Part shown: piece after piece, positions 55,491-57,229 of the stretch
How the letters are laid out: each line of letters opens with the position of its first letter
Position numbering within the stretch: position 1 is the first letter of the stretch
Origin: a virus
Direction: 5' to 3' (one strand)
Length of the DNA: 64,000 nt
IMG/VR virus record: IMGVR_UViG_3300033121_002167
Location: 1-64,000 of that record
Notes under the pieces: model-generated
Seen by the model: only the letters and a program-made list of their open reading frames with translations
Told to the model about the DNA's origin: nothing
Databases searched by the model: none
Position numbers and translations under genes: made by a program

Positions 55491-56153
55491 TCATCTGACA
55501 GATCGATGAAATGAATCGATAATGTTTACAACTCGAGGATCAAGAATAACTGCTGAAACGGCTGGAGCGTACACTCCTTCGCTAACATCTGCACCGCTGT
55601 CAATGATCACGTCGTAACCAATGTTTCTGAAGATGAAGTTCGTTGACTTGGTTGAACCCTTTATCTGGCTGACGACCTGGTACAGTTGACGACCAGGTGA
55701 CATTTCTGACAGCAACTGCTGATCGTACTCGGTGCCCACCTCTGATGGCCAAATATCTCGCTTACGATCTTCGTCGTTTTGCGCATTGTCAACAGCGGAC
55801 CCATACAATTTCCGAAGCTTGCCCACGTCGCTCTTCAACGCTGCTTCATTGTACGTTGAAGTGTCAAGCACTCGATCAGTTTTCACTTCAAAGATGTACA
55901 CATCGCTCATGCGGGTCAGGTACGCTGGTTTTTCTGGCCACCCGTACTCAAGATAAAACGACCAGATCCCAAATATGTCCCCGTAAGTGAAATCACGATT
56001 CAATGAAACTGGGATTCCTGGAGAGTTATTTTCAAACCGAACGTAGACGGGCTTGTTGTCCCAACGTTGCTGAAACTCTTCAAAAGTTCTCTTGGGCGAA
56101 CGTTGCGATTCCCGAATGATCTGACGTAGTTGACCGATTGTCAGGCGCATCAC
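55491..56153 (-). CDS. hypothetical protein with N-terminal 'LRQIIRE' motif
   Basis: MMRLTIGQLRQIIRESQRS... Confidence 0.4.
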   Translation of the reverse strand: MMRLTIGQLRQIIRESQRSPKRTFEEFQQRWDNKPVYVRFENNSPGIPVSLNRDFTYGDIFGIWSFYLEYGWPEKPAYLTRMSDVYIFEVKTDRVLDTSTYNEAALKSDVGKLRKLYGSAVDNAQNDEDRKRDIWPSEVGTEYDQQLLSEMSPGRQLYQVVSQIKGSTKSTNFIFRNIGYDVIIDSGADVSEGVYAPAVSAVILDPRVVNIIDSFHRSVR

Positions 56154-57229
56154 AGTTGCTTGATCTTCTGAATCACTTCTGCGTAATCTGACACGAAGGG
56201 TGAATCTTTCGGGATTCCAGCTTCAATAGCAACTTTGACTTGAGCTTGCAAGTTCTTCACGTAGAAGAGCGTCATAGACTTCTTCACGTTTGACAGCAGC
56301 TGGGCCTCGAGTTGCTGGCGCTCTTCGGGTTTCAAGTTGTTGAGCTTCTCAGAACCCTTCACCTTCTTGCCCAACTTTGTCTCGAGCTCCTGGATGCTCT
56401 TTGCAGTCAGGACGGCTTCAGCTTGCTGAAGAACGTTGCTCAACGTCTTTTTGATGATCTCTCTAGAAACGGCTTGCAGCTTGCGAGCTCGATCAGATTC
56501 TAGAGCTTTCGCTACTAGCTTCTTGTTCGTCACAACTTGGCCGATAGGCGGGAGCTTCTTCTTTTTCTTCCCTTTGCTATCTTCATGAAGAGCCCCTTCG
56601 CCAAAGAAGCCACCGGGCATCGGATCAGCAACGTAACCACCTGATGGAGACATCGGTCCGTGCGGGGCAGAGTACCCACCGCCGCTCTTCTTGTAAGCGT
56701 TTTTGATTCCCTTCACAGTCGTAGCCAAAGAACCACCAGACAGAACGTTCATCAAGTGAAGAGCTGATCCTGGCGACTTTGCAGCCGCCAAGCCGGTCAT
56801 CACGTAACCCGGGTACGCAAAGAAAGCGCAAAGAGCGATGTCATTGTTGCGAAATGCATCCCAAGTCGCTTCGTACACATCGTTGTACTCTGACTTGATC
56901 TTCGCAAGAGCATCTTTCTCTTCATCAAAGATCTCTTTGAACTCGGTTGTCAACCACGGGATGATCGACACCATGAAAGCTTCAAATGAGACCTTGAACA
57001 GAGTTTGAGCTCGCTTGCTGACTTCTTTCGTCTTGCCAGCAGCAACTTGCACAACGTCAACGAATGGCTTAACAAACGTTGAATAAAGAGCATCTTGTGA
57101 AGCAAAATGTGCTCCGAAAGGCATCATGTCGTACGCAGCACCCATCATGCCACCGTACCCATCATCCTCTTTAAGGATCTCTCTTATGTACTCACGTAGG
57201 ATCCTTTTGCTGCGTTGGCTTTTCATCAC
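56150..57229 (-). CDS. hypothetical protein with N-terminal 'RILREYIREILKE' motif and Gly-rich linker
   Basis: 359-aa ORF; candidate virion internal protein. Confidence 0.45.
   Translation of the reverse strand: MMKSQRSKRILREYIREILKEDDGYGGMMGAAYDMMPFGAHFASQDALYSTFVKPFVDVVQVAAGKTKEVSKRAQTLFKVSFEAFMVSIIPWLTTEFKEIFDEEKDALAKIKSEYNDVYEATWDAFRNNDIALCAFFAYPGYVMTGLAAAKSPGSALHLMNVLSGGSLATTVKGIKNAYKKSGGGYSAPHGPMSPSGGYVADPMPGGFFGEGALHEDSKGKKKKKLPPIGQVVTNKKLVAKALESDRARKLQAVSREIIKKTLSNVLQQAEAVLTAKSIQELETKLGKKVKGSEKLNNLKPEERQQLEAQLLSNVKKSMTLFYVKNLQAQVKVAIEAGIPKDSPFVSDYAEVIQKIKQL

Follow-up and report, generated by a model that had tools for sequence, protein, structure and literature searches.

A short terminal helix on unrelated proteins of an uncultivated T4-superfamily phage as a probable head-targeting signal

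Introduction

The internal proteins of T-even phages are highly diverse, and only their capsid-targeting sequence (CTS) is conserved (PMC3012670). In T4 IPIII the CTS comprises the first 10 residues, with residues 4 and 7 serving targeting and residues 8 and 10 serving processing, and the protease gp21 cleaves after L/I-X-E (PMC9026906); the T4 CTS reads MKTYQEFIAE (PMC8442874). Here we describe a short peptide, hereafter the tag, that recurs at the termini of otherwise unrelated proteins in a 64-kb stretch of DNA from an uncultivated phage (positions 1 to 64,000 of the IMG/VR record IMGVR_UViG_3300033121_002167; hereafter the window). The tag is conserved in orthologues, is under selection at the level of the protein, and is linked both to head modules of the T4 type and to a promoter-like motif found before head genes. 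We conclude that it is probably a head-targeting signal of the CTS kind, in which a short amphipathic helix at the extreme N terminus, or occasionally the C terminus, is joined to its carrier by a flexible linker. It is best read as a variant of the T4 capsid-targeting propeptide that is longer and in wider use. In the literature we found neither these tag sequences nor an account of a common tag of this sort in huge phages.

A shared terminal tag

Tags were sought in the six-frame translation of the window. The core of the tag consists of 11 residues, L-[RK]-x-[YIF]-[IV]-[RK]-E-x-[LIV]-x-[EK], and usually begins about 7 residues past the start methionine, whereas the extended consensus is M-[KR]-[IL]-x-hydrophobic-x-x-L-[RK]-x-[YIF]-[IV]-[RK]-E-x-[LIV]-x-[EK]. 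As a whole the tag is ~14-18 residues long, 7 of them ahead of the core; an example of 20 amino acids (aa) is MKSQRSKRILREYIREILKE. The strict regular expression [ILVM][RK][QERKS][ILVFYM][ILV][RKLQ]E matches the six-frame translation 8 times, against 0.62 +/- 0.83 matches when residues are shuffled within open reading frames (ORFs), and all but one of these 8 matches follow a start codon by 4-14 residues. We also trained a position matrix on related loci, excluding the window, and scored the 11-residue core alone with a cut-off of at least 11 bits; because nothing but the core is scored, the start methionine cannot bias the result. The matrix finds 15 core matches in the window as opposed to 2.2 in shuffles, and 13 of these stand no more than 30 residues from the start codon of an ORF that runs for at least 71 residues further (12 ORFs). 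The remaining two resemble the chance background.

These results bear out the initial annotation in its central observation, a motif shared at the N termini of unrelated ORFs. When the first 28 residues are removed from 11 tagged ORFs, a Nudix hydrolase and an ORFan among them, the carrier bodies are mutually dissimilar, with a best mutual E value of 0.097. The N termini quoted in that annotation are all present, on the minus strand, at the coordinates used below, and both copies of KKMINEEL that it had seen at 30174-30608 score with the matrix. One proposed member, VEEYVKRLF at 25001-27133, reaches only 2.9 bits with the tag model and is unsupported. Several others had been overlooked (53892-54161, 41331-41678, 27165-28025 on the plus strand, 44985-45317, and a tag-like helix in 54479-55477).

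The terminal position is not peculiar to the window. Across loci of the clade described below, 82 of 114 tag matches fall inside the first 30 aa. Scanning IMG/VR with a degenerate DNA pattern for M-K-I-x-hydrophobic-x-x-L-[RK]-x-[IV]-[IV]-[RK]-E-x-hydrophobic retrieved at least 120 stretches and, among the matches listed, 84 of 87 open ORFs of at least 46 residues. The codons at conserved tag residues vary, with the same codon used in only 50% of same-residue pairs and with Leu, Arg, Ile and Glu each spelled by several codons, which indicates that selection conserves the tag as protein and not as DNA. This variation, the copies found at C termini and an excess over shuffles of 7- to 13-fold in six-frame scans and 38-fold in called ORFs leave hardly any room for a signal in the DNA at gene starts, for instance a translation enhancer, or for a chance or compositional effect, even though the motif adjoins start codons and a DNA motif lies just upstream of several tagged genes.

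Within the core, positions 5-7 ([IV]-[RK]-E) have a high information content in the matrix (2.5 and 2.2 bits). A second [ILVMF]-x-E follows within 14 aa after the conserved Glu in 74% of tags, compared with 26% of untagged control N termini. The Gly- or Pro-rich linker that had been noted after the motif is also there, in the form of Gly/Pro/Asp-rich linkers, and orthologues at 30-60% identity retain the tag together with a variable Gly/Asp-rich linker. AlphaFold2 (AF2) predicts a tag helix followed by a disordered linker in two carriers, of 359 and 507 aa.

The 359-aa protein is encoded at 56150-57229 on the minus strand, with a likely ATG start at 57226 and the N terminus MKSQRSKRILREYIREILKEDDGYGG. 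Its core, LREYIREILKE (57167-57199), scores 28.2 bits. Behind the tag helix (aa 1-20) come a disordered, Gly-rich linker (aa 21-44) and then an all-alpha body, and in the AF2 model residues 2-20 form a helix and residues 21-35 are disordered or of low confidence. It has 33 homologues, all on contigs (up to 340 kb) of uncultivated viruses, and a family of 22 sequences, reaching down to ~30% identity, keeps the tag while the linker varies in length and sequence. No match to it was found in Pfam, PHROG or BFVD. In the 507-aa protein (59294-60817, minus strand; ...EQQLRSLIKKFINE) the core LRSLIKKFINE at 60737-60769 scores 18.2 bits, and AF2 predicts a helix over residues 2-26 and then a break. This protein has an invariant D..E-x-K signature, and in its family of 23 sequences (40-62% identity) nearly all of the 22 orthologues retain the tag, again with a variable linker.

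The gene next to that of the 359-aa protein encodes a 220-aa ORFan (55491-56153, minus strand; N terminus MRLTIGQLRQIIRES) with the core LRQIIRESQRS at 56097-56129, scoring 16.1 bits. Its sole homologue is a 97% identical copy, and it sits between the 359-aa gene and that gene's conserved downstream partner. An ORFan as carrier agrees with the T-even picture of diverse internal proteins that have the CTS alone in common.

Head genes of the clade and their tags

The phage from which the window derives is a member of an abundant uncultivated clade of T4-superfamily jumbo phages. Searches of 50,697 phage records by megablast and tblastn, with the region and with the 359-aa protein, returned no match to the window. 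Among the IMG/VR matches listed, the neighbours of tagged genes form a T4-type set that comprises the large terminase (TerL), portal, head-maturation protease and tail sheath as well as a gp32-like single-stranded DNA-binding protein, a UvsX-like recombinase and a gp46-like nuclease. Locus L169, which shares a 309-kb contig with a 47% identical orthologue of the 359-aa protein, carries genes for TerL, portal, protease, scaffold and major capsid protein (MCP). Its protease matches the Peptidase_S77-family proteases of related loci (BLAST 1e-69, L120 protease), and its MCP matches by BLAST the Gp23-family MCP of L155, a locus whose contig bears a distant homologue of the 359-aa protein. The Pfam families Peptidase_S77 (PF03420, the T4 gp21 family) and Gp23 (PF07068) were found in L155 and in L038, a smaller T4-like relative. 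In both L155 and L169 the gene order is TerL, a tagged small gene, portal, c300, the gp21-type protease, further tagged small genes, scaffold and the gp23-type capsid gene. The L169 capsid protein has more than 565 IMG/VR relatives at 64% identity or above, and no cultured relative comes nearer to it than 43-48%.

A prohead protease, which the initial annotation proposed to look for elsewhere in the genome, is thus encoded in relatives as a gp21-family member, whereas that of the window's own genome was not reached. Searches with the protease alignment and the L169 capsid protein arrived at clade relatives and not at the window's own IMG/VR contig, a search with the L029 portal for the window's head module returned the contig of that portal alone, and the ~8 kb that flank the window beyond its 3' end (L034) contain no head genes.

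We compared 79 head-module loci. Three small-protein families (t157, t83 and t103) encoded amid TerL, portal, protease and scaffold are tagged in 29/39, 20/34 and 10/17 members, and the tag is never present on the capsid protein (0/80), the protease (0/41), c300 (0/40) or TerL (0/26) and is found on a single portal protein (1/38). The same association is seen at the scale of a genome in LR756508, a complete 484-kb genome with 745 ORFs and a capsid protein 48% identical to the L169 one. It has 43 tag matches versus 3.65 in shuffles, and 29 of the 745 ORFs are tagged N-terminally, with the core beginning 7 aa past the Met in 15 of the 29. The 81-kb region that surrounds the protease and MCP genes contains 22 of these tagged ORFs (odds ratio 25, p = 7e-15). 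Homologues of the window's 359-aa, 711-aa and 710-aa proteins directly adjoin head genes in smaller T4-like relatives. Not all T4-like phages have the tag: it is absent from the head module of cyanophage S-SSM4 and weak in that of Flavobacterium phage immuto.

Two further features of the clade were observed. In the head module, a peptide deformylase gene (L169 10933-11436; phrog_2890, 1e-42) separates the prohead protease from the tagged small genes. Inteins are common in the clade: one interrupts a papain-like Peptidase_C1 protein of the window (41651-43633, minus strand), and others, with LAGLIDADG or HNH domains, are found in the portal and prohead protease of relatives (L155 5825-12910 and 13983-15710; L055 6001-10085).

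The window itself encodes a bacterial-type GroEL (46% identity), an IF-1-like protein, DNA-repair enzymes, an RNA ligase and a 5'-3' exonuclease, along with homing endonucleases, an AAA ATPase and a homologue of the eukaryotic major vault protein (MVP). Two of these products, the ATPase and the Cpn60, could be taken as partners of a signal for regulated proteolysis or chaperone handling, that is, an AAA+ degron or a GroEL-directing N terminus. Snyder and Tarkowski reportedly found in 2005 that the N terminus of T4 gp23 directs proteins to GroEL, which would be a parallel. We consider such a signal very improbable, as LR756508 has tags but no GroEL match and only a weak AAA match, and as neither the clustering at head modules nor the hydrophobic-x-Glu pattern would be explained.

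The MVP homologue raises the question of another shell. It is encoded at 19824-22511 on the plus strand (895 aa; Pfam MVP_shoulder 2e-30, Vault_3 and a Vault repeat just below threshold), and among the 50,697 phage records its only matches are in the uncultured huge phages LR756500, LR756501 and LR756503 (41-45% identity). The encapsulation peptides of bacterial microcompartments (BMCs) and the cargo peptides of encapsulins are short amphipathic helices with a flexible linker, found at either terminus of unrelated cargo enzymes, and by analogy the BMC-like architecture of the tag could make it an encapsulation peptide for a vault-like particle or microcompartment, the more so as the MVP gene lies close to the tagged genes at 24-28 kb. 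This, too, seems very improbable. An MVP homologue is missing by tblastn from LR756508, which has 43 tags, and likewise from all ~300 tagged loci that were fetched; no BMC shell domain and no BMC or encapsulin shell gene appeared among the ~50 window proteins scanned against Pfam, a set that did not include every small ORF.

A promoter-like motif upstream of tagged genes

The start of the 359-aa ORF is preceded, at a distance of 2 nucleotides (nt), by the promoter-like motif ATATTTAA (57232-57239, minus strand). Further sites lie at 60824-60831, 54168-54175, 45323-45330, 44451-44458, 46821-46828 and 24810-24817 on the minus strand and at 24988, 27140-27147 and 29069 on the plus strand. The pattern ATA[N]TTA[AGC] is depleted in the window (11 sites versus 27.5 in shuffles), and at 10 of the 11 an ORF begins 2-17 nt downstream; six of the ORFs concerned carry the tag (Fisher p = 4e-5). 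This upstream DNA motif is distinct from the coding tag. In the 79 head-module loci, ATA[CTA]TTA precedes the t83 gene in 71% of cases, the scaffold gene in 35% and the TerL operon in 50%, compared with 8% for other genes. The late promoter of T4 is TATAAATA, and we suggest ATA[CTA]TTA as a candidate late promoter of the clade.

Targeting to the head

Taken with the comparative context, these observations argue for head targeting, and we infer from them that tagged proteins may bind the core, be packaged, be cleaved and be ejected. Late in infection, the helix would dock its carrier to the scaffolding core, and as the gp23-type shell is built around this core the carrier would become enclosed in the prohead. 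The gp21-family prohead protease would then cut after the conserved Glu of [IV]-[RK]-E and often, a second time, at a hydrophobic-x-E some 8-12 residues further on. The mature protein freed in this way would remain in the head until it is ejected together with the DNA. The initial annotation had proposed propeptides of virion or internal proteins that are removed during head maturation; the targeting part of that proposal is well backed by the comparative context, and the removal of the propeptide is plausible from the pattern of the site.

A number of observations weigh against this interpretation. The tagged genes of the window are distant from any head gene, the separation in L005/L169 is ~110 kb, and the carriers in the window include enzymes that could equally work in the cytoplasm. 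The tag is not strictly N-terminal: a few proteins have a second, internal copy, and the C-terminal copies of relatives, for which a simple N-terminal propeptide model has no place, would lose only ~4 residues by a cut after the conserved Glu. About 10% of the window ORFs are tagged, far above the handful of CTS proteins of T4. The nearest cultured phage has an MCP of only 43% identity, and the putative link to protease and capsid comes from clade relatives rather than from the window's own genome. Finally, the conserved [RK] positions of the tag have no counterpart in T4, and the N termini of T4 IPII and IPIII failed as a positive control, scoring -4.2 bits or lower with the tag model.

Tagged proteins of the window

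Downstream of the 220-aa ORFan lies the conserved partner gene of the 359-aa family, which encodes a 332-aa protein (54479-55477, minus strand). A tag-like helix lies ~24 aa from the ATG at 55456, with the core LKALVKEFIGK at 55355-55387 (14.4 bits), and the family has the motif YNxAxMQPDExxALRxLVKEFxxKIxxxDNEIELLK; the helix may be a tag or a piece of a longer conserved helix. An 89-aa protein follows at 53892-54161 (minus strand; MVNILKEFILEAIKASSSYMKKE; core at 54117-54149, 17.5 bits), and its orthologues in L005, L009, L017, L019 and L020 retain the tag.

Four small carriers are encoded elsewhere on the minus strand. A protein of ~107 aa (41331-41678; MSDQQLLKEYVSTIIAELK) has a likely start at 41654 and a core at 41604-41636 (16.4 bits), and a 144-aa protein (30174-30608; KKMINEELKKMINEEL) has two cores in tandem, at 30590 (16.7 bits) and 30566 (19.2 bits). 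The 78-aa protein at 28236-28472 (MRINVERVRQIVREEIE) combines the core VRQIVREEIER (28419-28451, 20.3 bits) with a Gly/Pro linker. The gene at 24404-24868, for a protein of ~133 aa beginning (V)KITIARVRQIVLEEILREVGGG, probably starts with the GTG at 24805, 4 nt downstream of a promoter-like ATACTTA, and its core at 24752-24784 scores 14.4 bits.

On the plus strand, a 286-aa ORF (27165-28025) shows the tag after an internal methionine, Met16 (MLIRINELKELIRVAVLNE; core at 27231-27263, 12.4 bits), with the Glu at core position 7 replaced and with a promoter-like ATATTTA at 27140. Its 3' end overlaps by ~225 nt with a convergent IF-1/eIF-1A-like gene (27800-28309, minus strand; Pfam 1.3e-18, domain at ~28048-28240), and one of the two gene ends is therefore probably shorter. 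A 110-aa ORF with an internal start (44985-45317, minus strand; MKIKLRELKSMIRTILTEG; core at 45264-45296, 15.4 bits) lies in frame within the 3' end of the 5'-3' exonuclease ORF at 44985-46178. With a promoter-like ATACTTA 5 nt upstream of its ATG and a separate small tagged gene behind the exonuclease gene in relatives (L002 20194-20442), it is probably a gene of its own. The exonuclease gene itself (44985-47005, minus strand) is apparently split by a GIY-YIG homing endonuclease (46133-46816), and a 62-aa ORF at 46817-47005 nearly duplicates the N terminus of the 44985-46178 ORF.

A Nudix hydrolase is encoded at 40467-41039 on the minus strand (MSTSRTKEVKLLKQLIREMLTDPRPP), with a likely start at 40985 and the core LKQLIREMLTD at 40920-40952 (15.7 bits). 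The NUDIX domain (Pfam E = 3.6e-20) covers aa 69-173 of the 190-aa translation, and ahead of it are the N-terminal tag and a Pro-rich linker. A nucleotidyltransferase-like gene of the HIGH type (58716-59480, plus strand; Pfam Citrate_ly_lig, E = 8e-6 for L013 and 1e-3 for the window copy) belongs to a family in which relatives end in a C-terminal tag, such as ...GEGLLRSYVREVLKS*, ...LLRSYVREVLKS* and ...LIRRFVEETLKG*; the window protein has only a weak version of it, LKSWISLLIGL at ~59400-59432, which scores 4.4 bits. The 711-aa protein encoded nearby (60832-62967, minus strand) has a KxDG ligase-like motif and in the window is a neighbour of this separate nucleotidyltransferase gene. In L038 a single 810-aa protein (9641-12073, minus strand) contains a cytidylyltransferase-like domain followed by a part homologous to the first 400 aa of the 711-aa protein, and this fusion of two neighbouring window genes suggests that their products act together.

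Such enzymes invite a different explanation, in which the helix is a docking peptide that gathers tagged enzymes on a cytoplasmic hub, a complex for nucleic-acid repair or modification that has nothing to do with the virion. Several carriers or neighbours of tagged genes are nucleic-acid enzymes (Nudix, nucleotidyltransferase, KxDG ligase-like, exonuclease-linked), the L038 fusion joins two of them, the tag can sit at either terminus, and the conserved partner family at 54479-55477 has a similar internal helix. We nevertheless regard a cytoplasmic hub as unlikely, though less so for the enzyme carriers, because the most conserved tagged families are small non-enzymatic proteins of the head module, because tags cluster round the head genes of LR756508 and the promoter-like motif is common to tagged genes and the scaffold and TerL operons, and because ORFans of 46-150 aa are numerous among the carriers.

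Neither the tagged proteins nor the tagged families of the head module otherwise had matches in Pfam or PHROG, and fold searches with the carriers returned nothing significant. A RelB_like_antitoxin identity, indicated by one sub-threshold match, did not generalise and was rejected. The window also holds more than 50 small paralogous ORFs (~70-90 aa) in a tandem array at ~2000-20000 on the plus strand, with others at 28876-30155 and 51834-52255. A G-D-L motif marks their N termini, and overlaps by ATGA are frequent among them; the two that were scanned had no Pfam match.

Implications

If the tag marks packaged proteins, it allows the internal or ejected proteins of very abundant uncultivated T4-type and jumbo phages to be listed from sequence alone. 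Since packaged proteins arrive with the DNA, they would be prime candidates for functions in anti-defence and host takeover. T4 IPI, for instance, blocks a restriction enzyme. The CTS principle would moreover extend from a few T-even internal proteins to a general loading of cargo, enzymes included, and those who engineer phage capsids to deliver proteins would gain a second targeting peptide, which is longer and apparently more stringent.

Head targeting could also extend further than in T4. We put forward, tentatively, the possibility that the tag is a portable packaging signal usable at either terminus, with which this clade, far from T4, loads dozens of proteins into the head, and that the cargo includes enzymes, namely the Nudix hydrolase, the HIGH-type nucleotidyltransferase and the ligase-like protein. 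Were this so, what such phages inject would amount to an enzyme toolkit prepared in advance, its diversity exceeding that of the T4 internal proteins by an order of magnitude, and the injected proteome of thousands of metagenomic phages would become readable from sequence.

Comparison with known systems

Despite the resemblance between the tag and the T4 CTS, the two are not equivalent. Both are short N-terminal peptides on otherwise unrelated, fast-evolving proteins, and both follow the pattern hydrophobic-x-x-hydrophobic-hydrophobic-x-Glu, ending in an L/I-x-E site of a gp21-family protease. When YQEFIAE is aligned to the core L-R-E-Y-I-R-E, residues Y4, F7, I8 and E10 of T4 fall on L1, [YIF]4, [IV]5 and E7 of the tag, and three of these four tag positions have the highest information content in the matrix. 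The likeness to the T4 cleavage site and CTS that had been claimed from the outset therefore stands for the [IV]-[RK]-E pattern and the alignment of residues, and not for the score, as the T4 CTS has -4.2 bits with the tag model and none of the N termini of T4 head proteins rises above 0 bits. With that score and no counterpart to the [RK] positions, common descent with the T4 CTS is not shown, and the similarity appears to be one of pattern and putative role. The two systems further share a gp21/gp22/gp23-type head module and carriers that are partly encoded away from the head genes. The tag differs in being longer (~14-18 residues versus 10), in its two conserved basic positions, in often having a second hydrophobic-x-Glu site, and in the Gly/Asp/Pro-rich linker that comes after the tag. 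It is also more widely used, occurring on ~12 proteins in the 64-kb window and on 29 in LR756508, enzymes included, and in one family it is C-terminal.

Small acidic proteins with tags, whose genes lie between those for portal, protease and scaffold, recall the products of T4 genes 67 and 68, which are encoded in the same setting, although Pfam and PHROG detected no similarity between the tagged head-module proteins and gp67 or gp68. The T4 gp21 substrates (gp67, gp68, gp22, gp24, Alt and gp21 itself) likewise start with a short segment that ends in hydrophobic-x-Glu, as in the N termini MEGLIE, MLKEQLIAE, MAKINELLRE and MELITE. Unlike the tagged proteins, the T4 core proteins have no one N-terminal consensus in common. 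For processing at the C terminus, T4 Alt provides a precedent (PMC9026906).

The giant phages phiKZ, 201phi2-1 and SPN3US also package dozens of proteins, whose N-terminal propeptides are cleaved off after Glu by a protease related to gp21, and these propeptides contain redundant sites. Their cleavage motif, however, is S/A/G-x-E as opposed to the I/V/L-x-E of the tag, their propeptides are mostly 111-254 residues long with no shared consensus reported, and their clade does not have the T4-like gene order. We therefore rejected a phiKZ-like propeptide as an account of the tag, whose P3 residue is I, V or L, which is short and common to its proteins, and which occurs in a T4-like gene order. 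The BMC and encapsulin peptides are set apart from the tag by genomic association, which for the tag is with the head module and protease of a tailed phage.

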